A stretch of 64,000 bases of DNA from assembly GCA_002269645.1 (NCBI GenBank), contig NIVC01001870.1, positions 111,798 through 175,797 of the forward strand. Direction: 5' to 3'. The notes under the pieces were generated by a model that was not told the DNA's origin, searched no databases, and worked only from the letters and a program-made list of their open reading frames with translations. This document shows positions 19,101 through 64,000 of this stretch, in pieces. Position 1 is the first letter of the stretch, and every line of letters starts with the position of its first letter. Source of the stretch: Macrostomum lignano (lineage: Eukaryota). The translations under genes and the position numbers were made by a program.

Positions 19101-19206
19101 AATAAAAAATGCTAGCTAGAAAAACAAATACAGGTTTAAATCTCTAAAAAAAGGTTTACCTTATATTTCCAAGACTTTCTGAAACAGAAGCTGCTACACC
19201 TTGCAT
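9795..19206 (-). CDS. AP1B1/AP2B1: AP-1/AP-2 adaptor complex beta subunit (beta-adaptin), 10 exons
   Basis: Exons spliced at GT-AG sites: 19206-19160, 19091-19021, 18601-18162, 17913-17735, 16727-16659, 16182-15780, 15042-14545, 12868-12440, 11368-10931, 10196-9795. The translation contains [70 protein letters not shown] and the appendage [12 protein letters not shown]. The first exon is inferred. Confidence 0.95.
10290..10900 (+). repeat. Intronic minisatellite, 20 bp unit
   Basis: gatggcgccaaatcgatcag repeats with longer variants. Confidence 0.9.
10931..11368 (-). CDS. AP1B1/AP2B1: beta-adaptin exon 9 (hinge end and appendage Ig-like subdomain)
   Basis: [14 protein letters not shown]...[14 protein letters not shown]...KMDPLLTLQ; canonical splice sites. 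Confidence 0.92.
11440..11660 (+). repeat. Intronic minisatellite, about 21 bp unit
   Basis: gtacaaatgtactaaacaaaa repeats. Confidence 0.85.
11805..11995 (+). repeat. Dispersed repeat; second copy at about 16500-16635
   Basis: aactgtatgggaca...gtcaaacagacccagccactctcccgcctc...gacaaagacaagc...ttgcgggacaaagac in two introns; the second copy lacks an internal segment. Confidence 0.8.
12010..12360 (+). repeat. Intronic degenerate minisatellite, about 21-24 bp
   Basis: gagattct(c/t)ag(t/c)gagattata repeats. Confidence 0.85.
12440..12868 (-). CDS. AP1B1/AP2B1: beta-adaptin exon 8 (trunk end and hinge with clathrin-box-like LLDID/LLGEG)
   Basis: [39 protein letters not shown]...[10 protein letters not shown]...[10 protein letters not shown]. 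Confidence 0.92.
12930..13950 (+). repeat. Intronic minisatellite, 21-23 bp unit, about 45 copies
   Basis: agctg(c)aggggaatgtt(a)gtgt(t/c) repeats. Confidence 0.95.
14019..14350 (+). repeat. Intronic minisatellite, 61 bp unit, about 5-6 copies
   Basis: gagccacctgaagtgaatac...gcatgtttgattga; period 61 measured (14081, 14142, 14203). Confidence 0.95.
14545..15042 (-). CDS. AP1B1/AP2B1: beta-adaptin exon 7
   Basis: [12 protein letters not shown]...STDPAAAKQ. Confidence 0.95.
15108..15300 (-). mobile_element. tRNA-derived CORE-type SINE
   Basis: Minus-strand head with A box TAGCCTAGTG and B box GGTTCGATTCCC, followed by a MIR-like CORE (plus strand cccattttacagctgggtgaactgaagccatgcagagttaaatgtcttgctcaaggacaca). 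Confidence 0.75.
15322..15585 (+). repeat. Intronic minisatellite, 30 bp unit, about 9 copies
   Basis: gttgctatgcaactatcagtagctaggtgc. Confidence 0.95.
15780..16182 (-). CDS. AP1B1/AP2B1: beta-adaptin exon 6
   Basis: [22 protein letters not shown]...DVDFVRKA. Confidence 0.95.
16659..16727 (-). CDS. AP1B1/AP2B1: beta-adaptin exon 5 (not in the ORF track)
   Basis: (E)[22 protein letters not shown]; splice phases match both neighbouring exons. Confidence 0.9.
16765..17722 (+). repeat. Intronic minisatellite, 34 bp unit, about 28 copies
   Basis: attttctaagaatctgttccacctgagtattctg; period 34 measured. Confidence 0.95.
17735..17913 (-). CDS. AP1B1/AP2B1: beta-adaptin exon 4
   Basis: [24 protein letters not shown]...LLTALNECT. 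Confidence 0.95.
18010..18135 (+). repeat. Intronic minisatellite, 33 bp unit, about 4 copies
   Basis: acaatatcccatagactatacaatctcacagac. Confidence 0.85.
18162..18601 (-). CDS. AP1B1/AP2B1: beta-adaptin exon 3
   Basis: [35 protein letters not shown]...[13 protein letters not shown]. Confidence 0.95.
18660..18950 (+). repeat. Intronic minisatellite, 32 bp unit
   Basis: ggcagattgtagggtatttaatagtagataat. Confidence 0.85.
19021..19091 (-). CDS. AP1B1/AP2B1: beta-adaptin exon 2 (contains TDSKYFTT)
   Basis: [24 protein letters not shown], with acceptor tttgcag and donor gtttg. Confidence 0.8.
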
Positions 19207-23613: not shown

Positions 23614-24588
23614 TGGGTACCACCGATTGATTATTGGCTCTTATGGTTTCTTAATAACATTACAGTTTCTGGACAATAAAATTATGCGTACCCTATTCTG
23701 GTCCCCGTTAGTCCACTCCCTGGTGCAAGTCATGACATATTTCTGCCCTCTTCCTGTTCCCCTTTGCCCCATTTTCTGGCGCTATATGACCAAATTGTGT
23801 TTTCCTTTTGTTTTACTATGTATTTCTGCGGTAATTTTGTTGAATCCCCTTTTTGGCCTTTTGAGTTTTCGCCCTTCCCAAGTTTCTGGGCCTCGCAAGC
23901 CTTTTTGTGACCTGTTTCCTGTGTATTTATTCCCGCCCCTTGCGCCTGTCCTCCCCTCAGTTTTTTTTCCTCCTCTCTCCCTCTCTTTTGCTCTCTTCCC
24001 CTTTCTTCTACTCTTTCCGACACGCCCCTTAACTTAATAACATTTAGTTAACGTAGTCTAATACTTGAAGGAAAGAAAACCTAACTTAGTTTTATTTAAG
24101 TAAGCCCGCACTGCGGCACCATACATGCGCAACCTCCAAAATTCGGTCGGCCATGCGACTTAGTTTTAACAAAAATGCGACGTAGTTTTTGGCCAAAAAT
24201 GCGACTTACATGTAATAAAAACCCTAAAGCAAAATTAACGCAACTTTGGGTAAACGGAAGGAGTAACTATGACTGTCTTATTAGGTAAAAATGCCTCGTC
24301 AGCTACTTAGTAATACTACTTTGGTATTTTTCGGGTGGGCATTTTTGCGACTTCCTTGATTGGCTGCCAAATCGGTCGGCCGGATTGGCCGACTCGGCCG
24401 ACTGTTGCGCATGTATGTGCGGCACCCCTGATTCATCTGTCGTCGGTGGTCTCTTATTTTACGCGCGTGAGGCCTAGTTTAATATTTTAGTTTTTTTGTA
24501 CCAACTCGATAAGCAATAAACTCGCATTAATTTGCTGCAATCCATTCTTCGATAAAAGCCATAGCTTAACTTAAGTCATTTGCCCGTG
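23614..24588 (+). repeat. 5' LTR copy (truncated, contains a MITE)
   Basis: Nine substitutions and two small indels relative to 32119-32791, apart from the MITE. Confidence 0.85.
24120..24417. mobile_element. 298-bp MITE (hAT or P type) carrying a 28S rDNA-like fragment
   Basis: 14-bp TIR CATACATGCGCAAC; 8-bp TSD TGCGGCAC (24112-24119, 24418-24425); the empty site with a single TGCGGCAC is visible in the other LTR at 32620-32627. Confidence 0.93.
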
Positions 24589-25310
24589 CTACGCCTGGAG
24601 ACAACGGCTAGCCTGGCTCAGCGAGTAGCTCCACCGCCAGCAGCGAGACATGTACGGGTTCTCGAGGATGACGACAGTCAGACGCCCACTGCGGTGCAAC
24701 ACGACGCCAAGTCATCTCGGCCCGAGGAGAACTGGTTGCGGGAAGTGATGGAGCAACAAACGGAAACTCTGCAAGAGCAGCGACGAATTCTGGAAACATT
24801 AAGCAACGAAATGCGAGAGTTCTACTCGCGGGGATCGCGCGACAATGACACCCCGGAGCCATGGGAACCAGCTCGCCATCAGCCGCGGGACTCGTGGGGC
24901 CAACGCTCCAGATGTTTGGTACCTCCGACTCCTCGCCGCAGCGCCGATGGAAGCGCCCTATTTACGACACCCGGCACATGCCATGTGCAGCATCAACCGT
25001 TCCATCGACTTCAGCAACCACGAGATGGCAGCAACCCGCCGCCAAGGACACCGCCAGCAGGAGGTCAACGTTGACAACATCAGCAGCCGCAGCAGTTGCA
25101 GCAGCAGAAGAGTTTGCGCCCGCCGCCCTATCAGCTGCGGCGGCAGAGCGCCATGTGCTACAGGTGCAATCGTGAGCATTGCAGCAAAGAGTGCCCGCAT
25201 TGACGGTCGGCCAGCACCGTGCCCCAGCAAAACGGCAGCTCGGGAAATGGGACGGCTGGACGCGCCATCGGGGGCAGCGCCATCCAGCAGCTGAGCCAGC
25301 ACTAAAGTCC
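24589..25310 (+). pseudogene. gag: Gag C-terminal remnant with zinc knuckle
   Basis: CYRCNREHCSKEC (Cx2Cx3Hx4C) at 25156-25194, followed by an in-frame TGA at 25201. Confidence 0.7.
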
Positions 25311-25394
25311 CCGCCGAGGACTTTAGTCGCTCAGCAGGCCACTGCTGAGACCGCCTCTGCGCCTGTACAGAACTCTGCACCCAAGCGACCTTGA

Positions 25395-28300
25395 AGGGAT
25401 CCATTTCTGACTGGTGAGATTCAAGGCCGCTATTTTGCTTTTCTACTTGACACCGGCTCCAAGTGCGAAGTCTTAGGATTCAGCACCTGGCACCGTCTAT
25501 GTACTGATGACCCAACCCTGCGTGGCCAAATTGAGCCCTGCCAACAATGCATTGTGACCTACAATGGCGAACCAATCCAGATGGCAGGCCAACTAACTAT
25601 GAAAGTTAAAATCGGAAGTTTTGAGCTGACAGTTAAGTTTCTGCTAGCAAAGGGATCACATGACAACATCCTAGGCTTCGAGTTTCTAGAGAAGTACAGC
25701 ACCTCACTAGATCTCGCCGCCGGGATGCTGTTCTTCAAGGACGGCACTGCCGCACTGCTTCGCTACACGCGAACTGAAGCTACCACGTGCAGAATTTATA
25801 CAGCCGAGAGCACTACTGTGCCACCATTATCTTCAGCACGAATCAAAATCAAATTAGCAAAAGGACGCGAAGAAAACCAAGGGACACTAGCTGTGATCAA
25901 GCCGCTGAAACTGGCTCGGCGCGAAGACGATGTACAGCACCTGGACGCCGCGCCTGCCCTGATATCAATGGCGAATGGAGAAGGCGCAATTGAGATGATC
26001 AATCGAGGCACTACAGCCATCAAAGTGCGAGCGAACGCCCTAGTCGGGATTGCGAGACCAATCAGACTGCCCGAGTTACATTTCTTTCCACTGCCGAAGC
26101 CAGAAGACTTTGTAAACCAAATCCAAGACGAAGATCCTGATGCTTAGATCAAGGAGATCGACATCGGCGAGGATTTGACCAGTGACTAGCGCGCTCAAGT
26201 CATCGAGCTGCTAATGAAGTACAAGAACATCTTTTCCCAGGGGCCACACGATCTCGGCCGAACTCACCTGGTCACCCATAACATCGTACTAAGGGACAAG
26301 GATCCGGTACACCTGCCGATGCGAAGGATTCCGCCACATCTGTTACCGAAGGTGGATCAGCTGCTAGACGATCTTCTTGCCAAAGGTGTGATCAGACCAA
26401 GCTTTTCTAGCTACAACACCCCGCTGGTGATCATCCCGAAGAAGGACGGCAGCCTGAGGATTGTACAAGACTTTCGGAGTTTGAATCAGAAATGTGAGTA
26501 CTTTCCATACCCGATTCCTAATATTCAAGAAGCGTTCGCCAGCCTCAAAGGAAGCCAGCTGTTTAGTACATTCGATTTAAATAGCGGCTACTATCAGATT
26601 CCTCTGCGTCCAGAAGATCAAGATCTGACTGCATTCGCTACGCTGCACCGCGGACAATTCGCCTATAATGTTATGCCTATGGGACTCAGCTCAGCTCCAG
26701 CCAGCTTCATGAGACTTATGAATGCTGTGCTCAACGGGATAGCCTACAAAAGTGCAATTGCCTATTTAGATGATGTCATCGTCTACTCCAAGAAGTTCAA
26801 CGACCATCTTCAACATATGGAAGAAGTTTTCAAACGAGTGCAAGACGCCAACTTAAAGTTCAAAGGCAAGAAGTGCCATTTATTTCGGGAAAGTCTAAAT
26901 TATTTGGGATACCTAGTAACTAAGGACGGCATCAAGACCGATCCGGCGAAAATTGAAGCAATCCAAACCTGGCCAAGACCAAGAACAGCCCGGCAACTTA
27001 AAAGCTTTGTTTGCACGTGCGCTTATTATGCTAAATTTGTACCCGGCTACGCAGAACTTGCAGCTCCGCTCCATGATTTGATCAAAGAAAAGAAAATTCG
27101 GAATTTCAATTGTCTATGGGGAAAAGCCCAGCAAGACGCGTTCGACCAGCTCAAGGCAGCTATGACTTCGACATCAGTGCTCGCATTTCCGCAGTTCAGC
27201 GAGGATCCTGAAGTAATGTTTATCTTGGACACGGATGCTTTTGCGACCAGGATCGGAGCCTGCCTGAGCCAACGCCAAGCTGATGGAATCAAGCGCCCAA
27301 TTGGCTATTTCTCCCGGCGACTCAAGCCAGCCGAAGCCCGCTATCCGATTACGAAGCAGGAACTATTGGCAGTCGTAGACGGAATGCAACACTTCCGCTT
27401 CTACCTGCTGGCCAAAAAGTTCATCTGCCGAACCGACCATGCCGCACTAACCTGGATCCTGAGACGAACTCAACAGGTTGGAATTTTTTGGAAGATGGCT
27501 ACAACGCCTAAGCGAATTCGAGTTCGAGATCCAGCACCGAAAGTCGAGTTAGCATCAAAACGCTGACGGCCTCTCGAGACGGCCTGAGGACGACACTGAA
27601 TGCATGGAGGAGGCTCAGCGCGAGGCAGCCGCAGTCGAGGACCAAAGTAAGCAGCCAGCCGCGATAACTGGCATAGCGGCGCCGAAGGTCCACGACAGCA
27701 GCCACCCTAGTCCTCCACCAAGCAAGAAGCGACCGACCCGCCGTCACCGACAAAAGCCGCCGACGAAATCAACTGAGTCCAACGGCGAGACTACGCCGCC
27801 CGCAACACCGACAGCCGACAGCAAGCCGCTGACAGAGCTGCATCCGCCAGCGACGAAGTCGAGGCCATCTGCCAGTCGTTACCGGGACTCACAGAGGTCG
27901 CCTACCAGCTTTAGCAGTTCGACATGTTGCCCCATTAGGAGCCACCGACTACTAGCTGAAGGTGACGAGGACAGCGACCACAGTGCAGCCAGAGATGACC
28001 GCTGCCAACCCGCTTGCTGCCCTAAGTTCAAGAAGGTGAGATTCAGCAGCGATGCCAACAGCTCCGCTGACTCATCATTATCTGCTGATGATTCAAATTT
28101 CAATAACAATGACGCCAAAGCCACCGACACGGATCGGCCTTCAAAGACAGCAATGGCCCGGCCACCAGTCCAAGTAGCGACCATGCGTAGGGAGCTCCCG
28201 ACCCCGAACCATGCCGCCACAGCCGATGCCGCGCCAGCAAATCCTACTGACAGACGCCGTACTCTGAATCTAACAGATCACATCCCGAGGCCAGTCACTC

Positions 28301-29607
28301 GCGAGGAGCTCCAGACCCATCAGCGTGCTGACTCCGCCATCACCATGGTGATCAATCTATTGGAAACCCGACAACCGAAACCGCCGATGAACCAACGTCT
28401 GAACATGACGAGAAATGAACGGAACCTGTTAGCGTTTTACGAACAATTAGAAGTCCGAGACGATGGACTATTAGTTATACATCTCGACGATGTCGGAGAA
28501 GAGTACGAAGCGCGAATCGTCTTGCCAAAGAGTCTCGATGCCACCGTGTTCGCTGACCTGCATGGTTCGCCCTACTGCGGACACATGGGCTGAGACCTTA
28601 CCATCGCTAAGGTGCGCGAGCGTTTCTGGCGACCTGTCCTGGCCAAGGCAGTGTCCAACTATGTCGCTTCCTGCCAGACCTGCACTTTAAGCAAAGGACG
28701 GCGGAGAATTCCGGCGCATGTACAGTCGTTCCCGGTCTGCAAAATCTATGGGCGATGCGCTATTGACATCTTGGGCCCCACTGGAGATCCGACAGATCGA
28801 GGCAATAAGTACATCCTCACCTATGTCGACACGACGTCGAAGTACCCATTCGCTTTTGCCATGAAGAACCAGCGCGCTAAGACGATAATCACGCTCCTGC
28901 AAGAGCAAGTCTTTCCGATCACCGAAATTCCCGCTTGGATTCACTCGGATCAAGGCAAGCAATTTACAGGGCATGAGTTCCGACACTTCTGCAAAGTCTA
29001 CGGTATCAGGCAGACAACGACGCCACCATACTCGCCCTGGGCGAACGGACAAGCCGAATCGTGCAATAAGAATATTAAGAAAGTGCTCACCTGTCTCCTT
29101 GAAGACCACCAACAGTGGGACAAAATGTTGCCAGCTGCTTTGACTGCACTAAGATCCGCCGTCAACCGTACCACCGGGTTCTCGCCGCACTATGTAGTCT
29201 ACGGAGTGCCTTATCGATACCCTATCGACAACACCCTAGACCGCCTAGACATATCAGCTGACCTCCCGGAGTACATCGCTAAACATCAGCACAGACTAGC
29301 CGAGACTGAGCGCATTGTTTGCCAGCAACTGAGAGCAGAGATCCAACGCTGAGAAGAGTACTATGAAAACCGGCTGAAGCCAGTAGAACTGCAGCCCGGA
29401 GATTTGGTCTGCCTGGCCAACCCGAAGCTCGAGTTGGGAGAGCTGCCAAAATTCCACCGGCCGTATAAGAGCATGTATAAGATTGTTAAGAAAGTCGGCG
29501 AAGTCGCTTATTGGATTAAACCTGCCACAGCACGACGAGGACGCCCAGCCGAAGTACTCGTACACCGGAACAATATTATCAAAGTGCCGCAATCAATGGC
29601 TGAATGA
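25395..29607 (+). pseudogene. pol: Gypsy pol (protease, RT, RNase H, integrase, GPY/F-like tail)
   Basis: LLDTGS (GAC at 25449), YLDD, ILDTDA...ELLAVV, GHMG*...CQTC, AIDILGP/HSDQG/GQAES. Stops at about 26145, 26187, 28591 and 29350, and a frameshift near 27490. Confidence 0.93.
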
Positions 29608-47060: not shown

Positions 47061-47099
47061 TCCACCAAATGTCCGCGCTGGTCCCGGTCGAGTCCGCAG

Positions 47100-48130: not shown

Positions 48131-50726
48131 CCGGCTTGGGCCGAGAAAAGGGGTGAGTAACAGACAGGGAAGCCTCGCCCAGTCAAACTAGCTGGTTTTC
48201 AGACGGCTATCCAGGACAACAGGCTCTATATGCTAGAGACAGCCAGTGTGCCGTGTTTCCTGCTACATCTGCCTGGCCAAAGACCTTTCCGTCACGTATG
48301 GAGCCAACGGACTGCCGCTAAAAGAAATCATTTTCAGCGACCCACTGAATGGAAGAAAAGCTTTGAATTTCAGCCAGCTTGTGAATCCCATGTCCAGAAT
48401 TAAGAATTGGACTGAAGATTCCTGCAAGGCCGAGTCCTCACCCGAGAGCTGAGACCAAGCTGGTCTCCAGTCTGCTGGATGCGGTGCAAGACCTCTTGGA
48501 GGAAGCAGAAGGGCTGGCTAACAATCGGACTGTGAGCGATATGGATATTATGGGTATTTATTACTACTTATCGCGCTTTTAAGTATCGATTTTCAGATGT
48601 TTTGACGCAAAAAACGCAAATTATACTACTATCTGAATTAAGTAAGTAGTATATGAAAACGTTATCCTAAGCGTAATATATGTATACATAGCATACTTCT
48701 ATATGTACTCGCATATGTACATTAATCCCTATCTATCTCAAATTGTATGTGTACATTGTCTACTTCTATGTCTATCCCCAATTCTATATGTACATTGCCT
48801 ACTTGTACAGTGCATACTTCTACATGTAGACTTGCGCATTAATCTACTTCTATGACAATTTCTATATGTTCAGTGTCTATATAAATAATCCCCAATCTAC
48901 ACGACGGCCTCCGCTCTGCGTATTTGAATTGTCAACCCCACAAGATTATATGTACAATTCAAACTCGAAACACTAATTGCTACGTGTACAGCGCAGTACA
49001 TGCGCAGAGGTGGGTCGGTGCGCGCGCGCGATGTACAATCCCATCTACATGTACTGCCAAATGAGTCAACTAACCCCCCAAATTTTATTAAACACGTCAT
49101 ATGCATTGAATAATTTTTTTCGAAATCACTTATACAATACATATGCATTCGTATAGAGCCGGGTTCGTGCGTACAAACTCTCGCCAAGCGATGGGGTGGA
49201 GGTTGCGTCATCCAAGTCTCTCCCCAAGTCTGCCCCCCAAATACAAGACTGTGTTGAAGCAGTGCTTTATATTTCTATTGACAGTGGGTATTATAAAAGA
49301 CGCTTCGTCGCGCTTTAATATCCCCTCGAAGCTCCTATACTGAACGTTTAATCACCCTTTAACTCGGATCATAGTCAAAATTCAACCCCAAGACTGTTCG
49401 AAAACAGCCACCCCTCTGATGTTCACCAAACTCGTCTTCACAGCGCAGACCCCATAGCAAATCGAGCTAAATTAACGCTCGTCCAGCTGTTCTCTCTGTC
49501 CCCCTTCTAAATGCCAAGGAATTTCGACCCTCTCTCCATTTTCAGTGTACAGACAGATCTTTCCACAGCACGGACCCTATATTAAACATCATTCAGCAAA
49601 ACCCTCATCTCTGATTACGTCATCCATACCCCTACAGAAGCAGTTAGCAAGAAACCAACTTTTAATGCACACATCAACCCCGCGAATCTGAGCAAATCCG
49701 AATCCGCCAACCTCTACCTTCATTGACCCAATATCTATCAAGGTACACAGCCTATTAATCAGTGTCTCCACCGCATGCAATTCTGATATACTTGATTCTA
49801 ACACTTTTGCATATTGTCTCTTTGTCGCGACTTTCCTAGTCATTTCTTTAGTTCACCTTCACTTGTCTCTGTTTACTCTGTTTTCTCTCTCTGTCTAGCT
49901 CTGACAATCTTGTTATTCTTATCTCTCTCTCCCTTGCTGCCTTCTGATTGGCTCTCCATTCTCACCTCTCTTTTTAGTCGCGCACTCCACCCCTCTCAAA
50001 TGTTTTATTCTTCTTACGTAACCAAACATTTTTTTCAACTTTGTACGGTTTTTGGCCGTACTTTTACTTTTCTTTAAGATTAAATTTTGCGTTTGCGCTT
50101 TACCAAAATACTGGCATATGCTTCCAGTTTCAAAGTTTCTATGTCTGCTGTGGTCAAATGCAATTATATACTCGTATAATCAAAATGATGAAAAAAAGCT
50201 ACTTTCTGTGGCTCCCATATGTGTGGCATGGTGTCTCAGTAGTATATAAAAAGACGCTTCTAGACCCAGAGCACTTTTTTAATGACCGTTTTAAGGGTCT
50301 AGAGGGGGGACACGGGGGGTAAATAAAAAAACACATCTAAACACCATTAATACATCTAATCACCCATAATCACCCCTAACAATAAAAATCACTTCCAAAC
50401 ACTTCCAAACACTCCCCAACACCCCCCTCGCGTCCCCCCTCTTAAGACCTTACAAACGGCCATTAAAATAAGGTCTGATCTAGAAGCGTCTTTTTCTATA
50501 CTACTACTCTATAACCCCTTGCCCGCGCCGCAGGCGCGAAGGGTCGGAAAGAATAGAAGCTATTTATAGTCAGCTCACCTACCCACCCAACATTCCATTT
50601 AGACCAGATTTTAGACCAAACAAAACTAGACTATCGTTTTGGTTTTCGTTTTCAAAAATTTGGTCTAAAATCTGGTCTAAATGGAATGCAGACAATCTTT
50701 TTCTGTTACTAAAAATAGAACAAAAA

Positions 50727-51125
50727 ATGACACACGTTACACATATGCAAAATCTGAATGAATTGCAGGTAGGAGACCCAGTTGAATACCGAGGTGAGGG
50801 GCTTTTTGATGTGGTTGGAACAGCAGCAAATTTTGTTAAAGACAATATGGGGCTTATAGGGCAAGCTGGCTCTGCAGCAGGCTCTATAACAAATGCTGTA
50901 AAAGGAGGAATTGAAGCAGCTAGAGCGGCAGAAGAACTAAAGAAATTGAGAGATTTTAACGACACCCTCTCACAAATAAATGCAATAAAAGATTTAAAGC
51001 TGGCACAAGCCGCACAACCAACAGAAACCCCCACGAAAAGCGCACCAATAAGTAATAAAGATATTCAGGATTTTAATAAAATGTTAAATACTATTAAAGG
51101 TGGAAAAGGATTAAAGAAATTTTAA
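50727..51125 (+). CDS. 132-aa putative virion/core protein
   Basis: Ala/Gly-rich amphipathic segment with GEG-L and IKGG-KG motifs resembling adenain cleavage sites. Confidence 0.6.
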   Translation: MTHVTHMQNLNELQVGDPVEYRGEGLFDVVGTAANFVKDNMGLIGQAGSAAGSITNAVKGGIEAARAAEELKKLRDFNDTLSQINAIKDLKLAQAAQPTETPTKSAPISNKDIQDFNKMLNTIKGGKGLKKF

Positions 51126-51135
51126 CAATATAAAA

Positions 51136-52122
51136 ATGGACACAGATAACGACCGCTTATATTTTATAGGAGAAATTGTAGATACTTTAGATCTAGATGA
51201 TAATAAACATAGCCACACAATGTTAAAAAGATTGGATCGATTAGGTAAAAAGTTTGACTACGACATCGATACATTTAAACTCGCAGCAAAATATGCACAA
51301 GAAGGAAGGCCAATATCCTTTAAGAATCGCGGCAGAAATTATAGGTTGACAGACTCCGATGTGAAATTTTTAATGGAGACTCACACTAAAAAGGACGGCG
51401 GATTACTACCCATTCTACCGCTTCTTTTAGGACTTGGTGCAGCTGGAGCAGTCGGTTTAGCCGGAAAAAGAATTCATGATAATGTAAAACAGCTAGGAGA
51501 GTTAAGAGCGAAACAGGGGGGAATCTTACCCCTTGCAGCTTTGCTCCCAATAATTTTTGCAGGAATTGGAGCAGCTGGAGGAGTTGCTGGCGGAGCAGCT
51601 GGAATTGCAAAAGCAGTAAATGACAAAAAAGCTGCGGACGAAAAAGCTAAAAGAGAGGCCGAATTTCAAAGACAGCAAATAACGCAGGACGCACAATTTA
51701 AACAAAAACTTATCGATACAATTAATAGTAGTTCAGCAACAGCTGAGCAAAAAAGAAATGCAGAAGCTAGGTTATCAGCTGGAAAAGGGTTAATACTAAA
51801 AGGATCAAATCATGGCAATGGTTTACTTTTACAAGGAACAACCCAAGGAAGTGGAGTTGTAGCAGATAAACTACATGAATTTGGTCAAACTTTAGAAAAA
51901 ACGGGTGAGAAAGCTAAAGGATTTTTTGACAATATTGGATCCAATTTTAGGCCAGCAGTTCAGAAGATTTTTACTAAGTTAGGAAAAGATTTTAATATCA
52001 TTGAAAAACACGACGGAAGCGGATTATATCTCGAAATGAGACCAAAAGCAGGTTCAGGAATTTTCTTAAATTCAAACGTTATGGGCAATGGATTGCTATT
52101 ACCAAAAGCAGATCTCGAATAG
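51136..52122 (+). CDS. 328-aa core-protein precursor with two adenovirus pX-like peptides
   Basis: GG-LLPILPLLLGLGAA and GG-ILPLAALLPIIFAGIG, compared with adenovirus pX GG-ILPLLIPLIAAAIG; repeated GxG(L/I)xL motifs. Confidence 0.75.
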   Translation: MDTDNDRLYFIGEIVDTLDLDDNKHSHTMLKRLDRLGKKFDYDIDTFKLAAKYAQEGRPISFKNRGRNYRLTDSDVKFLMETHTKKDGGLLPILPLLLGLGAAGAVGLAGKRIHDNVKQLGELRAKQGGILPLAALLPIIFAGIGAAGGVAGGAAGIAKAVNDKKAADEKAKREAEFQRQQITQDAQFKQKLIDTINSSSATAEQKRNAEARLSAGKGLILKGSNHGNGLLLQGTTQGSGVVADKLHEFGQTLEKTGEKAKGFFDNIGSNFRPAVQKIFTKLGKDFNIIEKHDGSGLYLEMRPKAGSGIFLNSNVMGNGLLLPKADLE

Positions 52123-52206
52123 GCTCCTGGGGGGAGGGTCTGGACACCAAAAACACAAAATTAAAAAATCAATAATTCAAACATTATATAAATTTTATTC
52201 TATAAA

Positions 52207-55200
52207 ATGGAAGCAATTTTAGCTCAAATCGACAACCCGAACTTAGAGCACAATTAATAGCTCAAATCGATGCACAACGAATTGCCGATAGGGCTGAAAT
52301 AGAAGCAAGAATTAGGGCAGAAAATGAGATACGTTTAGAAAGACAATTAAATGATATTAATAACCCCCAACCACAAGGACAAAATGGAGCTGAAGTAATA
52401 TATATAGATATAGATATAAATACAAATTATAAAGAATATTTTAAACAAATGAAAGATAAATTAAAGACTATATTAAACAATTATACTATAAGGCCAAATA
52501 ACAAACGACAGCCAATTAAGTATAAAATAGAAGTTGAAACAGAATTTAAAAAACCAAATATTCTTAATGCAAATTCAGAAATTGAAGTAATAAATAACTT
52601 TTCACAAGAATCATATAAAACATTATTATCAATGGGAAATTACAACAATCAATTCGATCAAATAGAAGCTGAGTTTGATGAATGGATAGATAAGATGACA
52701 GAAAACGGATCTGGGTTTATATTTGTTTCATGCAATTCAGCAACAGTAAAGATTGCACCCATAGAAATTCTTAAAGGACGATCACATATGAAGCTCAAAT
52801 TTAAATCACCTATGATTATAAATCCAGACAATAAAGATAATAAATGTTTATTATGGTGTTTATTAATTCATAAATATCACAATCAAGTAGAATCACACAT
52901 TAATAAAATATATAATTATAGACAATATGAGGATGAAATAATAATGAAAAACATATCATACCCAGTAGCAATAGATGATATATATAAGATTGAAAAAATG
53001 AATGGTTTAAATATTAATGTGTTTACAATTGAAGAACCAAAAGATCTAGAAGAAATTTTAACCGATCCAGAATGGTATAAGAAAAGGTGTTATCTTGTTA
53101 AGCCAGCAACTGATATAACAGCACCAGATCAAATCGATCTTTTGTACATGCAGCGCGAAAATGAAACACATTATATATACATAAAAGATATTAGTTCTTT
53201 TTTAAGAGAAAATAGAAATAGATATCCACTATGTAGAAATTGTTTTACATTTAAAAAGGATGAAACAGCTCTTAAAAACCACCAACGATTTTGTTTAGAT
53301 CACAAATTTACTAATGCTATAATGCCAGCATCTGAAGATGCAACCCTAAAGTTCCAACAACATTATATGGCAATTAAAAAACCAATAGTAATATATGCTG
53401 ATTTTGAAGCAACAAATGTTCCCTTAAAAGAACCACAAACAGTATCTGATGACGGTGAATGCACAAAAAAATTGGCACAACAGTTTCCGAATAGTTATTG
53501 TATATATGTACACTCCGTAGCTGATCATATATTTAAATCAAGGATGATTACTTACCACGGTAATGATGCAGCTAAGCACATGGCAGAATCATTAGTAAAT
53601 GTATTTGAATATATTCAAAATCAATATGATAAATTATCAAAAAATATTAATATGACAAATAAGGATAGAGACAATTATAAAAATGCAACAAATTGTTTTA
53701 TGTGCAAAAGACATTTAAGTAAGAATAATAAGATACGAGAACATTGTCATCTAACAGGAAATTATCGAGGGGCAGCATGTAGATCATGTAATGCAAAAGA
53801 AGGAAAAGGATGTAAGGAAATACCAGTATTTTTTCATAATGGTTCCGGATATGATTTTCATTTCTTAGTTCGAGAATTGCTTCATTTAGGAAAGGATGAA
53901 TATGAAATAAATATATTACCTAAAACATCAGAAAATTACATATCAATAACATATGGTAAGAAATACTCCCATCTAGTTTTTCTAGATTCCTTGAGATTCT
54001 TATCAACATCTTTAGCAAATGTTGTTTCATCATTAGTTCCAAAACCATGGGATTTAGAAATAGTAAAGAAAAACTTTCCAATCTTATTGAATCGTTTCAA
54101 AAAGAAAAACTATCCGAGGAAGAACTAATGCTATTAACTCGTAAGGGCATCTACCCATATGAATATGTAACATCTGAAGACGTATTTTTTCATACCGAAT
54201 TACCCCCAATTGAAAAGTTTTATTCAACATTATCACAAACAAACATAAGTGAATCGGATTATGAACACGCTCAAAAAGTATGGAAATACTTTAATTGTAA
54301 AACATTTAAAGATTATCATAATCTATATCTTAAAGCAGATGTTCTCCTATTAGCTGATGCATTTGAAAACTTTAGGAATCATACATATGAGAATTTTAAA
54401 ATTGATCCCGCATATTGTTTCAGTGCACCGGGATTAACATGGGCTTGTGGTTTGAAACATACAGATGTTAAGATTGATTTACTAACTGATCATGATATGT
54501 TGTTAATGATTGAGAGAGGAATTCGCGGTGGATTCTCGGGTGTACTAGGAGATAGATATACTAAAGTAAATAATAAATATCTACCAAATTATAATAAAAA
54601 AGAAAAATCATCATATGTATTATATCTAGATGCAAACAATTTATACGGTGGTTGTATGAAACAAAAATTACCAATAGCTGATTTCCAATGGGAAGATGAC
54701 CCCGATTATTACAAAAATATTCCCGAAGGAAGGGGCTGTATTGTAGAGGTGGATTTGCAATATACTCGGGAAGCAAAAGCAAAAACATATAAATATCCTT
54801 TAGCTCCAGAGCATTGTTCAGTTAATGAAGATGATTTATCACAAACACAAAAAGATTATCTTAAAGCAGATAATGCAAAACATCTAGCAACAAAAAAATT
54901 AATATTAAATTTACATGATAAGAAAAACTATGTAGTGCATTATAAGCTTCTACAATTTTATGAAAAGCAGGGATTAAAAGTGTCTAAAGTACATCGAACA
55001 ATATCGTTTATTGAGGAAGATTGGTTAGCTAAATATATTGACTTTAATTCAAATCAGAGACAGATGTCAAAAACAAATTTTGAGAAAGATTATTGGAAAT
55101 TAATGAATAATGCTTTTTATGGAAAAACGGTTGAAAATATTAGAGATAGAACCCAATTCCATTTAGAAAAGGATATTGATAAAGCAAAGAAATATTTCTC

Positions 55201-56170
55201 AAAACCTAACTTTAAAGACTTTATAAAATTTGATGATAACTTTATGGGTATTCATATGAGAAATAAAACAACAAAATTTCTTAAACCAATATTTATTGGA
55301 ATGGTTGTTTTAGATTATGCAAAGCTGGTAATGTATGAATATTATTATGATGTTATAAATAAAACATGGCCAGATAACTATCCAATATATGCAGACACCG
55401 ACAGTTTGGTATTTAAGGTTGAAACAGAGGATCGGGCAAAGCCCGCGAACCAAAGGTTCGATGTCTATAAAGATATGGAAAAAATTAAGGATACACTGGA
55501 TACCTCCGACTATCCGGATAACCATCCTTTAAAATCAGATCAAAATAAAAAAGTTGTACTTAAAATGAAAGATGAATTAAATAGCAAAATCATAACCGAG
55601 TTTATAGCAATAAGATCAAAATGCTATGCATTTAAAGTTTTAGGACAGGAGGGAGAGGTAAAAAAAATAAAAGGGGTATCAAGAGCAGCAGTAAAAAAGA
55701 TAACATTTGATGATTATAAAAACGTACTTTTAGATTACCTTAATACAATTGAAAATTATCATGCTCCACAATATCGATTAAATTCAGATAAGCATCAGAT
55801 GTTTGTCATCGAGACAGATAAAAAAACATTAAGTCCATTTGATGATAAAAGATATTTAGATGATAAAATTAAAACATATCCATATGGTTTAAAAGAAGAG
55901 ATAAAAAATATGATAAAAGATAAAAAACAAAAAGAAGATATAATAAGTAAATATAATGAATACAAAGCGGCAATAAATAATTATTATTACGATTGTGATT
56001 GTGAATCCGAATGTGATTGTGAATATAATACATTTCTAGAATATGAAAAAGATATAGATAATTATTATTCAACATTTCCAAAAGAACTTAAAAAATTAAA
56101 TAAGGAAAAAGTCTTGAATAACTGGAAGAGATTAACAGAAAAATTACTTATCGGGTCTGTAAAAAACTAA
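52207..56170 (+). CDS. polB: Protein-primed family B DNA polymerase with EndoVII-like insert; two single-base frameshifts in this sequence
   Basis: IYADFE, HNGSGYD, YLKADV (Exo I-III); YLDANNLYG, KLMNNAFYGK, YADTDS (pol motifs); CFMC...EHCHLTGNYRGAACRSCN. Frameshifts near 52235 and 54078. Confidence 0.95.
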
Positions 56171-56503
56171 AGCATGTAATTGTTTGAGCAAATCATTAAC
56201 TTCAATTTCATATATTATTGAGCACCAATTATCCTCACAGTCGGCAGGGTAACTTAAACAATCCTTTATTTTTTTCCTAAGTTTTTTTATTTTTCTAACC
56301 AATCTATCTATTTCAATTTCAATTACTATTTCAGCATAAACAATATCTTGTCTTAAAAAACGTTTTCTTTTATCTATCTCATATCGGATGGGAAACATAT
56401 CGTCCCCATACTCATGATATTTCTGAGATATAATTATATTTATTTTTTTATTAATATCATTAAGTTCACGCTCTTTAGTGATAAGGATTTTTATCGTATC
56501 CAT
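56144..56503 (-). CDS. Hypothetical 119-aa viral protein
   Basis: ATG ORF with AT-rich viral composition, converging on polB. Confidence 0.5.
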   Translation of the reverse strand: MDTIKILITKERELNDINKKINIIISQKYHEYGDDMFPIRYEIDKRKRFLRQDIVYAEIVIEIEIDRLVRKIKKLRKKIKDCLSYPADCEDNWCSIIYEIEVNDLLKQLHALVFYRPDK

Positions 56504-56556
56504 TTTCTTATAAAAAATTTAGTCTTCGTCGTCATCCTCCCAAACAGCCGCCAATT

Positions 56557-56850
56557 TTACAGTCCTATCACTCTTTTTATTATTTTTTGTTTTAGTTTAA
56601 ATTGCAATCCACCCTCGTTGCAGTATTTCATAACAAACGCTTTAGGTTTATTAATAACTAAAACAGGAAAATTTTTAACATCATCTCCGCTTAGACATAA
56701 AATTTTTTGCCCATCTAATTGTAAAAATATTGATTGAAGCCCAATAAATTTAACCTGTCTCAAACATATAATATTATATTCTTTATTCTCCAACATATTG
56801 GGTGTGAGATAATTAATCACATTAGAATCGGTTTTGAACCAGCTCTCCAT
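56557..56850 (-). CDS. Hypothetical viral protein (likely start MESWFK at about 56850)
   Basis: ATG preceded by an A-rich leader like the other viral genes; may be frameshifted at the 3' end. Confidence 0.45.
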   Translation of the reverse strand: MESWFKTDSNVINYLTPNMLENKEYNIICLRQVKFIGLQSIFLQLDGQKILCLSGDDVKNFPVLVINKPKAFVMKYCNEGGLQFKLKQKIIKRVIGL

Positions 56851-56877
56851 TTTTAATCTAAAAAAATAACAAAAAAA

Positions 56878-57339
56878 ATGAAAGACATTTATGTTTGTAA
56901 TAAATGTAATGTGACTATGCACAGAGGGCAAACAGCAAACGGAGATATATATCATATGTGTTATTCATGTTCTAAAATATATCAATTTGAAAAAACAAAA
57001 AAGATTGAAAACTCATATTACTATTTTAAAAACACAATTTTAAGAAATCTTACAAGAGACATTTCTGATCCAATTTTAATTCCCGGAAATAATGTTTATT
57101 TATATAATAACTTTTTCCATTTAAATAAAGGAAAGGGATTAAGTTCGAAAGACTCTGAAAGGATTTTAATTTTAGTTGGATATTATTTCAATTTTCTTAT
57201 TCGAGAGAATACAAAGTTTATAAGGATAGGTAACATACCTAACGAAATGTTATTGAAAAAGTCATTGGAATTTTTATGTATTGATAAAAAATTTAAACCT
57301 AGATCAGAAGAGAGTTACCACTTTGGGAAGAATATATAA
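56878..57339 (+). CDS. Hypothetical 153-aa protein with N-terminal CxxC...CxxC zinc ribbon
   Basis: CNKC...CYSC. Confidence 0.55.
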   Translation: MKDIYVCNKCNVTMHRGQTANGDIYHMCYSCSKIYQFEKTKKIENSYYYFKNTILRNLTRDISDPILIPGNNVYLYNNFFHLNKGKGLSSKDSERILILVGYYFNFLIRENTKFIRIGNIPNEMLLKKSLEFLCIDKKFKPRSEESYHFGKNI

Positions 57340-57356
57340 CATATGCATTAGAAAAA

Positions 57357-57985
57357 CTAAACAACCTGAAGTTCTACCGCACTTCCTGACCGCGGGCTTT
57401 GTGCCCCAGTAGCAATAGTTTCAGGTTCGTAAATGCCTAATGTTTCTATAGGTGGAGCTTTGGGTTTATCGAGTCTCAACTCTTTTAATTCCATATCGGT
57501 AAAAGTTTCAACATCTAAAATTCTATTTCTATCTTTTAAATATTTTTCATATAATTCAACCGCGGTTGATAATTCATGAATCGTTATCTCTCCGTCATCC
57601 AATATTTTTTGCACATATAAATATAATTGATTTTTATATTGCTTGGCAACATCTCTTAAAGATTTATATTTTTCCTTTCTTTTTTAAGATATAATTTAAT
57701 TGCTAAAAGTATTGATAAGTTCTGATCATTCAAAACCTGATATTGAGCCAATTGAAATACCTAAAAATAATTGAGATAAATTAAGAGTTGGAATAGATTG
57801 TAAAATACCTAAAACGATTACACATAACATTGATAAGCTTCCAAATCCAATATTGAAAAATCCATATTTCTTATATGGTTTGAAACTCTTCTTACTTTTT
57901 TAGCATATAAATCATAATCATAATTTATTCGATCAACATTACTAACATCTGACCTTTACGTTGGTTGAACCGGTCGCGTTCCCAT
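57357..57985 (-). CDS. Frameshifted Polinton membrane-type protein
   Basis: A hydrophobic stretch (GFGSLSMLCVIVLGIL..LFLGISIGSISG), then LDDGEITIHEL, reconstructed across frames. Confidence 0.45.
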
Positions 57986-57994
57986 TTATCTGCT

Positions 57995-58321
57995 TCAGAT
58001 ACCGACATTCTCGTCTATTTTTAATAGCACCAAAATGAATTCCCCACGCTCTTTGGGGATTTGTCCCGAGCTTAATAGGTATTGTATTGGAGTTATTCTT
58101 TCTTTTTTCTCCCATTTAAATCCTATTTTCCAAAACTCTTGAAGTATAATATGATTTTTTAATAACTTAATTAATTCTTGAAGCTTCTTATTATCCTGAA
58201 CATTTACAGTACTAAATAAAAATTTGGTATGAGATTTGAATGTTTTTATATTTGATTCTTGTTTAGGAATAGGAATAATAACATTATTTTGCCGCATCGA
58301 TGGAGTTCTACTAAAAGCCAT
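57995..58321 (-). CDS. Hypothetical 108-aa viral protein
   Basis: ATG ORF with an A-rich leader, co-oriented with the morphogenetic genes. Confidence 0.5.
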   Translation of the reverse strand: MAFSRTPSMRQNNVIIPIPKQESNIKTFKSHTKFLFSTVNVQDNKKLQELIKLLKNHIILQEFWKIGFKWEKKERITPIQYLLSSGQIPKERGEFILVLLKIDENVGI

Positions 58322-60378
58322 TTTATATAGAAATATTTAAGTATTTCGGTTTGTGGCCGTTCCAAATATGCGGTCGCAGCAAAATCATATCCTGCTGATG
58401 TGCTACCACAAACGGCTGCACCACGAATAAAATGTGCGGCATCTGCTCCTCCAGTTCGAGCACCAAAACCCATAAGAGTTCCCGTTTTATCTAAATCTCC
58501 CCAAGTTCCACTATCATATGTAAAAAAGTTTTGCCCAATTAGCGTATATGTATTAGCTGATACATTGTATGTGCTTATTTGATACCAAACTCTTTGATTT
58601 AAAATATTAATTTCAAAAAGATGCCAATCGCCGTTATCAATATTAGCATAGGTTATAGTTTGATCTGCGTCATTAAGAACATCATTACGAGCTGTTGCAC
58701 CGTCTGATTTTATATTGCTCCAAACAACCCCAACTCTATCATGCCATTCACTCGCAAACACAATCAAGCCGGCGCGGGTTGTTAACCCGGATCCAAATTC
58801 ACTTGTTGGACGTTCGTGACAATATGCATAAAACCAAACCGCATCAGCACCACTTCCTGTAGCATTAGCAACTCGGAAATAGAAGGAGGCGGAGATATTA
58901 CGAAAATGGGTGAAATTAAATTGCAACGCTCCAGACTGACCACTTGCTTCATCAGTAATTCTAGCTCCATTTTGATAATCAATATAAGTAGCGCTACCAA
59001 CAAAACTTCCAGTTGGAAAAATATCACCGGCTGTGGTTGGGTTTTGATATCCAGTCCAATTGCAAATTACAGGCTCGTACAAAGCGGCATCGATTGCAGG
59101 TATTCCATCCAATTTTATTTTATCGTTAAAAGACATTCGGCCATCCGCCGTTTGTGTTACTCGCGTATCAACATAACCTTTAGTAACAACAGAACTGTTA
59201 TTGTTTATAGTAGAGATATTAGTAATTGTATTACCTCCCATATCAATTGATTGATTAACCACTCCCAAATTTAAATCAAGAATTGTAAACGTCTGTCTAT
59301 AAATCTGGAAGGTTGACAGACCCGGGTTGGTTGAACCCGAGTTGATGTAAGACAGAACAATCTGAAATATGAATATGTTTTATCAAAATTTTGTGTGACA
59401 TTAATTGTTTGAGTTGAGTTATTTATTGCTACAGAACTATCCGCAGGTATTAATACGTCCCAACTTGTATTGTCATTACTTCCCTCAAATCGCCATGATG
59501 CTGGGTGCTCGGTTGAAGGTGATGGCCTACCACGTAAATCAATTTTATAACACATTATTGCGGAAGGGCATTGGACTTGAATCCAATAATCGGTTTGAGT
59601 ATTATTTGTTGCCCAATCTGTTGAATCATTTCCATCAAACGCTTTCCAACTTGCAAAATCAGTTGTATTAAATGCAGTGCTTGCGGTTATTGCAAAACCA
59701 TTTCCACTCCAATCTGCCATGGTAGGTATGTGACCAGTTTCAACCGTTTGGAATCGATCTGTTTTGGGCTCCACCCCCAACTAAATTATCAACCTCCGTT
59801 TTGGTATAGGAATCAGTTATATCTCTTTTTAAATTTAAGGAATTATCAACTTCAGTTTTGCTATAAGAATCAGTTATATCTCTTTTTAAATTTAGGGAAT
59901 TATCAACTTCGGTTTTGGTATAGGAATCAGTTATATCTCTTTTTAAATTTAGGGAATTATCAACTTCAGTTTTGGTATAGGAATCAGCAACATTCCGTTT
60001 TAAATTTAGGGAATTATCAACTTCGGTTTTGGTATAAGAATCGGCCGTATTGCGTTTTAAATTTAATGAATCATCTATTTGAGTTCGAGAATAAGAATCA
60101 GTTATATCTCTTTTTAAATTTAACCCATTGTCAACCTCTGTTTTTGTATATGAATCGGCTACGTTCCGTTTTAAATTTAGGGAATTATCTATTTGAGTTT
60201 TGGTATAGGAATCTGCAACATTTCTTTTTAAATTTAGTTTAGTATCAACTTCACTTTTTTTATAACCTTCATCTTCATTAATATATCGGTTATCTCCGAA
60301 TGTAACACTTATTCCACCAGAAGTACCACCACCAGTACTTGATGTTCCGTTCCATGAGGGTGTTCCAGAAAATAACAT
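58246..60378 (-). CDS. Putative fibre/receptor-binding protein (about 700 aa, two frameshifts): 19-aa shaft repeats, discoidin (F5/8C), short stalk, L-type lectin
   Basis: 8 x KR(D/N)xxDSYTKTEVDNSLNL; AS..WKAFDG...WIQV...GR...EGSND..W...YFRL; IDMGGNTITNI...TKGYVD; GADAVWF...GDWH...MGFGARTGG..AHFIR. Confidence 0.75.
59785..60260 (-). repeat. 57-bp coding tandem repeat x 8 (fibre shaft)
   Basis: Directly visible 19-aa periodicity. Confidence 0.9.
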
Positions 60379-60408
60379 TTTTTACTGTCTATTTTATAGA
60401 GTCTAAAA

Positions 60409-60827
60409 TCATCTTAAATACTTCGGGTTTACACGAGCTTCATTCGAAAGTCGATATAAAAAATACAACGCCGCTTGCCCGCAATAACTTTTATCAAAGG
60501 TTTGAAATTGTTCGTGATGATCTCCACATAAACGATTTTTAGTATGATTAAATTTGTCTTTTATTTCCTGTAACGGAGGAAGCGCGTATGAATCAAAAAA
60601 ATAAACAAGTTTAGGTTTGAATAAACTGCTGACCAATGAACACCATTTTCTTTTGTTGTTTCAATATTAACAATGAAACATCCATATTGTGGTAAGTCTT
60701 TTATCTCATCCCGCATAACACATCTGAATGGTTTTATTTTTAACTGCCTCGCCCAATTTGTTAATTCGATATTGCTTGTTGTGTCCGTTCCATATCTTTG
60801 TTTAAAATCATCCCACGTCATGGTCAT
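60409..60827 (-). CDS. Adenain-like cysteine protease (one frameshift near 60620)
   Basis: NGVHWSA (His), YFFDSY (Asp), QFQ..SYCG (Gln/Cys) in adenain order. Confidence 0.88.
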
Positions 60828-60828
60828 T

Positions 60829-61032
60829 TTATGTTCCTGAAAAACTCTTGGTTTTAGTTAGTTTCGTAGGTGTGGGTTTTAACAATTCCTTTCTTATTTT
60901 ATCAGCTTGTAACTGCCTTAATTTTGCTAGTTCTAGTTCGTAATTATCTTCAGCTTTTTTAACTTTTTCTGATTGTTTTTTTATTAAATTATTATCGTGC
61001 TTTGCACGCGAACATGTTGTTCGATTACCCAT
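60829..61032 (-). CDS. Small basic coiled-coil protein
   Basis: MGNRTTC...KLRQLQADKIRKELL, between penton and protease. Confidence 0.45.
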   Translation of the reverse strand: MGNRTTCSRAKHDNNLIKKQSEKVKKAEDNYELELAKLRQLQADKIRKELLKPTPTKLTKTKSFSGT

Positions 61033-61076
61033 TTTTACTATAGGAAACGGACAAAGTCCGTGAACCAAAGGTTCGA

Positions 61077-61862
61077 TCAAACCTGTTTTATACGTAAAAT
61101 TATTGTTATTGATTGCCCACCAAAACTTATTAATCTATCGCTTTCATCTACAATCCTAATATAAATTGATTGAACGCTATATTGATTTAAAGGATAATAT
61201 ATTGGGGTTTGGGGTGCAACAATCATTTTCTCTCCAATTGGAACAGCAAGAAATGGGATTGAATAAATAATTCCACGTTGAACCAAAACTCCGTTATTAT
61301 CTGTTATATAACCACCGTTTGATATGTCGGTTGTTATATTAATTGTATTAACTCCACCCTCAATATTTCCCACTGTATCTCCGGTGCTTGATGTGGTAAC
61401 TATTCGGGAATTAAATCCAAGTATGGTTCTGAGTGAATTTGCAATTGTGAAATCAACCTGATATCCGGATCCTAGTGATAGTGTGAATCTGCCAGACGGT
61501 AAATCAACACCTATAACAATTGCTCCTGTTACCCAATCACCATTAGTTGTTAATTCTCCTTCTATATAAGCATTCAAATCAGTATAGCTATACGCTCCTG
61601 GGTTAATGCTAAATGTTGTCCAATTGGCTCCGGAATCTTTAGAATATCTAAATTGATTATTTGTTGCATTAATTAATTGAGGCATGTTGAAAACCGAAAA
61701 TAGAATTAAACCTATTTGATAACTTAGGCTTTGATCAAGTTGTAATGGATCGCGCAATTGAATCCGTTGCTCGCTGGTTGTCATTATAAACTGTAATGTT
61801 GTACTAAATTTTGAATTAGTTCGATCTACCAATTGTTTTATAGTATTTAAATTTGTAGTCAT
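61077..61862 (-). CDS. Minor capsid (penton) protein, 261 aa
   Basis: Intact beta-rich ORF: LRDPLQLD..YQIGL, NATNNQFRYS, INPGAYSYTDLNAYI, IRIVDESDRLISFGG, typical of Polinton minor capsid proteins. Confidence 0.8.
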   Translation of the reverse strand: MTTNLNTIKQLVDRTNSKFSTTLQFIMTTSEQRIQLRDPLQLDQSLSYQIGLILFSVFNMPQLINATNNQFRYSKDSGANWTTFSINPGAYSYTDLNAYIEGELTTNGDWVTGAIVIGVDLPSGRFTLSLGSGYQVDFTIANSLRTILGFNSRIVTTSSTGDTVGNIEGGVNTINITTDISNGGYITDNNGVLVQRGIIYSIPFLAVPIGEKMIVAPQTPIYYPLNQYSVQSIYIRIVDESDRLISFGGQSITIILRIKQV

Positions 61863-61882
61863 TTTTATAGTGGGAAATTGTG

Positions 61883-62675
61883 CTATGTCTCTTCTTCCTC
61901 ATTATCTTCTTTTATCAAATTTGTTAAAATTCTATGTTTCCTTTCTAACCTCGGATTGATATAAATATGTTTGTATTGGCTATCATCCCAAATTTTTTTA
62001 CACATACTTTTAAATGGTTTTGCATCCAATCCGGGATTAAATCTAGCGTGAATATTTTGTAGATCATAGTTATCTAAATCAAACATTACACAACAGCTAG
62101 CATTCTTTTTTATAATCGATTCTAATTCTCTAAAGGATTGAGTAAGATAAAAAGCTCCAATTCCATCTCCTCTACCACTAACAAAAATTTCCTTTTGCAA
62201 TTCTTGATCACCGTCATTAATACAATCATCAAAAATAATTAGTGTTTTATCATGTTTTGGAATTTGATCATAGGCTAATCGGGTTGATACTCTAACAGTT
62301 GGGGCGCGATCGGACGAAGTCCGCGACCCTTCGGGGCGATCGGTGATGTTTTCTGGCTGTTGTGCCATTGTTTTACATAAATCCTCAATGTCTGCTAGAT
62401 TAAATCGCGGTTCGTCATCATCCTCATATTGCTCATATGCTCTTAACATTCTAAACAAGACATCTTTTTTAATTTGTTTTTTAATCCATGTTTAAGAAAT
62501 TCATAATATTTTATTCTAGGTTTATTAGTATAAATTATTAAATTATTATAGTCTAACATTCCATCTGTTGTTAATAAATCGTAAACAAAGTGTGTTTTTC
62601 CTTTACCTGATCCTCCGATTACTAAACAAAGAAAAGGATCATTTGGAAATATTTATTGTGTTTTGCCTTTACCAT
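61883..62675 (-). CDS. FtsK/A32-like packaging ATPase (two frameshifts)
   Basis: Walker A IGGSGKGKT (about 62596-62622), Walker B LIIFDD, and GRGDGIGAFYLTQSF. Confidence 0.88.
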
Positions 62676-62739
62676 TTTTAAAGAAATAATTTAAATAGGC
62701 GCGACGGTCGGAGACCTGCGACACTAAAGTGGTGCGACG

Positions 62740-64000
62740 TGCTTTGCACTGCACTCATTTTACAATGGTGCGTCCGAACAATCGTGCCATCAGCTTTAGC
62801 AATTGACATATATTCCTCTAGAAACAATACGTGGGCGTCAAGTGCTGATTACCGGTTTTATTAATCTCTAACATATAATTAAGTCCAATATTGGCTACGT
62901 TTTCTTTCTGTGCCGTTAGATCATAAACAACCACTGGATGAATGTTTAGAAACTCTGTGGGTGTGTACTGAGGGACGGCATACGCTTCATTTTTAGCATA
63001 ATCTTGATAATATTTTATAAAATCATTAACATTATTATTTGCTATATTTAAATTTAGGGGGTCTTTAACCGGATAATATTGATCATCAACCTGCAGGCGG
63101 ATATTCTGAACATTAAACTCGTTAATAGCTGCAGCCGCATTGTCTGTTGCGGTGGCTGCTTGTTCTGCTATGGCACCGGATTGAAGCCAATATAAATCCC
63201 CATTTGCTCTTTTACTCCTTCTATTTGTTATCTTAAACCAAACAAAATATATCTCACCCGACGTTTTGATGTCAGTATTTGCCACTGGAATGAATCCTGG
63301 TTATTATTAATGGTTCGCATAAAATGTCGACGATTCAAATAAAATATTTCCTGATCATGCGTTAACTGATTATCGATGTGTTTTAAAAGTGGGGCTGTTA
63401 CCTCAATAGTTGGTACGACTAATTGAATTGAATCTATACGAACTGCTATATCGGTTGAAATTGAGGTTCCATAAAGTATCCTAGGCTGATATCCACCAGA
63501 TATTTGCAACTGTATCCCAAATTTTAATCCTTTCCATACCCGATTTGGTGAGAAAAACCCAAATAGTGGAAAGATTGAAAAGTCCTGCTCATATGCTGTT
63601 GCTGTGGTTAAAACCGCGACTGGGAATTTATTCTGACGATCTATAAAACCAGTATTAATATCTTTTGTATTAGTCATAGTGGTTACAACTGGAACTATGT
63701 TTGTATTAAGGTAAACAATTAGCGCTGCAGTATCTGCACCGGCTGCGTTTTGTACATTAGGTAAAACTACTGCTTGACCCGTTACTTTATCCGGCATCCA
63801 CCCAACATTATCACCAACTTGTTTTGATAAATAAGTATAATTTAAATGTTTCAAAACTCCATTAATCTCTGCGGGGTTTGATGATGTCTCAACCTCAGCA
63901 CCATTAACAGTTAGTTGAGCTTGGGAAAAACATTTATAAAACCAATCATTTTCTATTATTATTCCGGATCGATCTGCGATATCTCCGCTGCAAGAGCAGT
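62740..64000 (-). CDS. Major capsid protein (5' part beyond the window; frameshifts near 63230 and 62845; 3' end approximate)
   Basis: FQWQI...RYILFG-FK, NVQNIRLQVDDQYYP, FIKYYQDY, HPVVVYDLT, in the position and pattern of the Polinton major capsid protein. Confidence 0.8.

Follow-up and report, generated by a model that had tools for sequence, protein, structure and literature searches.

Gene content of the locus

We analyzed a window of 64,000 nt from a contig of Macrostomum lignano. From position 50238 onward lies a Polinton/adintovirus-like element, of which the window includes the left 13.8 kb (50238–64000) before cutting it off. The DNA of the element, from 50238 to the end of the window, is AT-rich and gene-dense, with the following features (double hairpins are given separately below):

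50238..50508, plus strand: left terminus, which begins AGTAGT and has an imperfect inverted repeat inside it (∼85 nt per arm)
50484..51125, plus strand: open frame with no assigned function (213 codons stop to stop; no Pfam match)
50591..50688, no strand assigned: strong hairpin with 30-nt perfect arms (z −12.6)
51115..52122, plus strand: intact ORF, possibly core-protein-like (Adeno_PX at E = 0.01, below cut-off)
52207..56170, plus strand: family B DNA polymerase (polB) with endonuclease VII domain; breaks within 52207–52254 and 53960–54128
56144..58336, no strand assigned: five small ORFs with no assigned function, one of them (about 57360–57990, minus strand) in pieces
58246..60381, minus strand: fibre-like gene with 57-bp repeats and an F5/8 type C domain; breaks within 59740–59780 and 59271–59379
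60409..60857, minus strand: adenain-like protease; break within 60561–60660
60829..61032, minus strand: small ORF with a double hairpin at 60996–61023
61077..61862, minus strand: intact ORF, probable minor capsid (penton), with matches to viral clusters and a role suggested by its position
61883..62675, minus strand: packaging ATPase; breaks within 62446–62491 and about 62640–62675; double hairpin at 62311–62338 inside
62681..64000, minus strand: double jelly-roll major capsid protein, truncated by the end of the window; breaks at 63231–63300, 62821–62848, and near the window end

Nine gene starts between 51129 and 62680 share a TA(T)AAAATG-like leader, a pattern that we made ourselves and that has no chance control.

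Relationship to Polintons and adintoviruses

The polymerase is a Polinton-type family B enzyme with hundreds of PolB homologues, one of which is a named adintovirus PolB (from a dragonfly; P0045, 41% identity). Its nearest relatives among the matches listed were unnamed proteins at 50%–55% identity, and none of these matches was a near-identical full-length PolB (the best were 54%–58%). A Pfam search gave no PF03175 match to PolB. Viral and metagenome scans returned distant relatives only (31%–42%) and no match for P0241 (a capsid homologue), P0121 (a related PolB), or the hairpin pattern described below. One distant viral contig (L001, 33–14334) carries an intact 1487-aa PolB together with capsid-like and ATPase-like genes.

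The remaining core genes were assigned from several kinds of match. The double jelly-roll capsid matched PF21738 below the cut-off (E = 1e-4), which its homologues P0243, P0244, and P0246 pass. For the protease, which had no Pfam match, the top cluster was "Adenovirus endoprotease domain" (0.96), with a recognition value of 2205 that lies below the tool's mark of 2300. Two collinear pieces of the ATPase matched Pox_A32 at E = 0.003 and 0.012, neither reaching the cut-off; a Walker A motif is visible, and there was no PDB match. The candidate penton fell with unnamed viral clusters (0.97–0.98), and its single-sequence fold prediction reached a pLDDT of 37. "Fibre" is a name suggested by the features of the gene at 58246..60381. 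Within the window, the rve-bearing P0004 matched only polB and Gypsy sequence; the right part of the Polinton lies beyond 64000.

Mavericks, as described in the accessible text of PMC8097293, have a retroviral-like integrase, a 6-bp target duplication, and terminal inverted repeats whose ends read (AG)3 or (AGT)2. Against that text, our element has in common the PolB, protease, ATPase, double jelly-roll capsid, and (AGT)2 left end, as well as intronless genes arranged in two converging modules; it differs in that its host is a free-living flatworm and that the integrase, right repeat, and 6-bp duplication fall outside the window. The same text reserves "intact" for Mavericks in which all core ORFs are uninterrupted. 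As assembled, the window copy is not intact in this sense, and majority contigs differ from it at at least six of the eight named breaks. Measured against the portion of PMC8502044 available to us, a PolB with no PF03175 match would fit Beta adintoviruses, whereas the closest PolB relatives here are unnamed (50%–55%) and no N-terminal OTU domain was picked up.

At the left terminus, the AGTAGT start corresponds to the (AGT)2 end motif given for Mavericks (PMC8097293, same text). The stretch 50238–50508 contains its own inverted copy, ending ACTACT, with no evident target duplication. A further 152 nt at 50544–50695, including the near-perfect long hairpin, were skipped by contigs of all four sequencing runs compared (see below); this stretch is either private to the window copy or a library artefact.

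Frame breaks in the assembled copy

The sequence-only reading had proposed at least eight frameshifts, each repairable by one base in a short motif. All eight motifs that it named sit at frame changes, with successive open frames overlapping: in polB near 52235 and 54075, in the fibre-like gene near 59340 and 59775, in the protease near 60615, in the ATPase near 62465 and 62645, and in the major capsid gene near 63235. Homologues locate several of them independently. In polB, the frame shift falls within 54035–54143 for every one of the 120 full-length homologues; in the capsid gene, it falls at 63243–63246 for the closest homologues, P0241 and P0242; and positions 11–57 and 96–169 of Pox_A32 fall in two separate ATPase frames. 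The first polB, first ATPase, and fibre breaks rest on overlapping frames and the common TAAAAATG-like start leader, not on homologues. Breaks exceed the eight named: P0241 alone indicates an additional capsid frame change at 62821–62848, another lies near the window end (64000), and two more lie in the gene without assigned function at 57360–57990.

The same reading had seen no nonsense stops in the core genes, and this was borne out for polB and the capsid gene, the two tested by homologues. Only two of 402 homologue alignments to these genes contain a stop, both merely overrunning a frame break.

Other genes of the window served for comparison:

9798..19191, minus strand: host AP-1/2 beta adaptin gene, the control, in 10 exon blocks with no inner frame change
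24565..29607, plus strand: Gypsy retrotransposon broken mainly by in-frame stops, the contrast case

Beta adaptin of Macrostomum lignano, the reference for the host gene, matches it at 99% identity and may itself come from a related assembly. The introns of the host gene (9798–19191) are filled with minisatellites of 12–61 bp units. The description of the neighbouring Gypsy as broken by stops holds for the 24.5–29.6 kb element, along whose pol we list seven in-frame TGA/TAG stops (the first and last are possibly natural ends) as well as a frame change near 27550. It does not hold for the Gypsy fragments adjoining the Polinton (44410–48198), which owe their disruption mostly to frame changes, truncation, and a microsatellite. 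These fragments (44410–45795 and 47206–48198) lie on opposite strands, and a GACA microsatellite splits one of them.

Contigs of public runs differ from the window at most breaks

We compared the window with assembled short-read contigs, which, not being raw reads, drop rare variants. In 20 of 24 listed runs, from eight studies, 78%–84% of sampled words of 52300–59300 were present, 84% being the highest share in any listed run. Contigs of four runs from four studies (X1, X11, X14, and X18) were then compared with 44400–64000, on the basis of the best-supported entries: the best 12 of 131 indel entries, the best 40 of 816 substitution entries, and a few dozen of more than 5400 pieces. Inside the element we counted 12 one-base differences, seven among the best entries and five bracketed from gapped versus ungapped contig pieces, under the assumption that runs agree.

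These contigs differ in length from the window at no fewer than six of the eight breaks, which rules out, for those six, frameshifts fixed in every copy. The six comprise three that were bracketed (both in polB and one in the fibre gene) and three among the entries listed (protease, second ATPase, and capsid). One length difference is bracketed in each of 52207–52254 and 53960–54128 in polB, and one within 59096–59427 in the fibre-like gene. At the ATPase (62446–62491) and capsid (63231–63300) breaks, all four runs differ at 100% of depth. Three of the four differ in length at the protease break, where X18 shows no difference (0 of depth 630). X11 has no length difference at one break of the gene without assigned function (0 of 121), and one non-coding one-base site is mixed in X1 and X14.

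The contigs reflect the family's majority form, not the window locus itself, and that majority sequence is open at the tested breaks (at least six of eight). Over the displayed pieces, the window copy differs from the contigs by 3.5–5.6 substitutions per kb (∼0.4%); four X18 pieces between 56488 and 63554 (1782 nt) have one substitution and four gaps. Contig depth over the element is higher than over parts of the flank, as a measure of depth and not of copy number. Both Gypsy fragments are matched at about 95%, as paralogues, and X18 barely covers 47670–48323.

Assembly error, decay, or recoding

Polishing errors or very recent decay had been offered side by side as the cause of the breaks. 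The spectrum of differences favours error, short of proof for the window locus. Among the best-supported entries, 11 of the 12 one-base differences run in the same direction (p = 0.006). Of the seven placed sites, four fall within or next to a run of at least four, compared with 13% of bases (p = 0.007), and two are in runs of one or two. All five substitutions listed inside the element are at synonymous third positions (chance about 0.001 at 25%), and they therefore resemble changes separating selected lineages rather than decay. What tips the balance towards error is this one-way bias, the enrichment in runs, and the synonymous-only substitutions: neutral decay should bring mostly replacement substitutions and some stops beside a dozen indels, as in the Gypsy element. 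In bacterial assemblies, homopolymer errors are documented to survive polishing within repeats (PMC8812927).

Two further observations discriminate less. The probability of finding no nonsense stop under decay is 0.02–0.33 depending on the assumed ratio (0.15–0.33 at three to five substitutions per indel), so the missing stops by themselves are weak evidence against it. Decay at a ratio of three to five would also accommodate the overall number of substitutions. The host beta adaptin gene has no frame change in 984 codons, where 2.6 would be expected at the element's rate (P = 0.08). This clean gene does not separate error from decay, because it fits repeat-confined errors and real decay alike.

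The window copy may instead have truly decayed by slippage after insertion, with intact copies or free virus dominating the reads. We consider this unlikely, although several observations are in its favour. The window copy is a distinct variant, with 0.4% substitutions and a left-end stretch that the contigs skip, and X18 lacks a difference at the protease break. Slippage, too, favours homopolymers. The contigs are unable to show absence: with rare variants dropped and the majority form retained, they would look no different if a single copy had decayed. Decay has to contend, however, with some 12 one-base changes of which 11 go one way, with the lack of any nonsense stop and of any listed substitution that is not synonymous, and with an older Gypsy in the same window that decayed mainly via stops. 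That the whole family is dead, with its frameshifts fixed in every copy, seems very improbable given the length differences at at least six of the eight named breaks; it would be in keeping with the lack of a near-identical full-length PolB among the matches listed and with two named breaks (the first ATPase break and the other fibre break) that are not among the read entries listed. We give equally little credence to programmed recoding of a functional element by ribosomal or polymerase slippage. Several breaks do lie in homopolymer runs, and transcriptional slippage could alter length if the sequencing runs are of RNA, as they may be. Yet the PolB and capsid homologues are single open frames, and a dozen sites in unrelated genes as well as non-coding DNA, at nearly 100% of depth, do not resemble recoding.

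The reading we prefer, with a joint probability of roughly 0.7, is that the element is one integrated copy of a young, multicopy, adintovirus-like Polinton family of Macrostomum with a Beta-type PolB, and that most of its one-base breaks are residual consensus errors of a presumably long-read assembly, left by polishing in a repeat.

Double hairpins scattered through the element

The element contains seven GC-rich hairpins whose loops are AAA, TTT, GAA, or TTC, where 0.34 would be expected. They make up four double hairpins of 13+15 nt (at 55433, 60996, 61048, and 62311) that share one orientation, and a fifth, degenerate copy that is reversed:

55433..55462, plus strand: 28-nt double hairpin flanked by AT at either end, within the polB reading frame
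60996..61023, orientation as above: double hairpin inside the small ORF 60829..61032 (minus strand)
61048..61075, plus strand: intergenic double hairpin, absent from some contigs
62311..62338, orientation as above: double hairpin inside the ATPase ORF (minus strand)
62716..62749, minus strand: degenerate reversed double hairpin, the fifth copy

A pattern search found four matches versus 0.08 expected, with the pattern drawn from those same copies. AT flanks three of the four clear copies on both sides, which makes the unit 30 nt. In the stems, six of 11 pairs are changed on both sides in a compensatory manner, and 89% of cells are paired (the structure was drawn from the same copies). The ATPase and degenerate copies fold no better than shuffles (z −0.8 and −0.9).

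Three copies lie in frame in ORFs (polB, the small ORF, and the ATPase). The one in polB adds exactly 10 residues after the DTDS motif, giving a spacing of 52 versus 42 in 119 of 132 scorable PolB homologues (240 examined). Three related PolBs (P0121, P0002, and P0166) have private 10-residue inserts rich in Gly/Ala/Arg/Pro, which could be similar hairpin insertions.

Copies also vary between contigs. The 61048 copy is skipped in contigs of three runs (joints 61038–61079 and 61043–61075), the 62716 copy (33 nt) in one X14 contig, and two X14 contigs join the ATPase copy to other places. Such joints could also stem from library skipping over hairpins or from repeats at likeness 90.

Rickettsia palindromic elements are likewise short, GC-rich, composed of two adjacent hairpins, scattered, and potentially mobile. 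The same properties are common to our double hairpin and the double-hairpin elements of fungal mitochondria, as far as the accessible text of PMC10085805 describes them. The extra residues in polB and the contig joints suggest that our double hairpin may be a tiny mobile insertion of that kind. The fission-yeast elements in that text are intergenic or in rRNA genes; ours are 28 nt long, AT-flanked in three of the four clear copies, and located in coding frames of a nuclear Polinton.

Implications

If the element behaves like other Polintons, its linear genome would be replicated by protein priming from the terminal repeats and inserted by a retroviral-like integrase, and its capsid module would consist of the major and minor capsid proteins, ATPase, and protease. 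Protein priming, the integrase, and the capsid module are family traits in the accessible portions of PMC8097293 and PMC8502044. We found no published account of Macrostomum Polintons (the supplements of PMC8502044 may list one; most subscription papers and Repbase were outside our scope) and, in the open literature, none of in-frame double hairpins in Polintons.

A wider proposal, which we regard as possible though doubtful, is that Macrostomum cultures carry an active multicopy Polinton virus, replicated or transcribed at full length and colonised by a mobile in-frame 30-bp double hairpin that varies between copies and has settled even beside a polymerase active-site motif. Maverick particles were unobserved as of 2021, according to the portion of PMC8097293 available. 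In a tractable regeneration model, free copies, particles, and expression of a young family could be observed by simple means. The case also warns that counts of intact versus fossil Mavericks depend on base accuracy in repeats.
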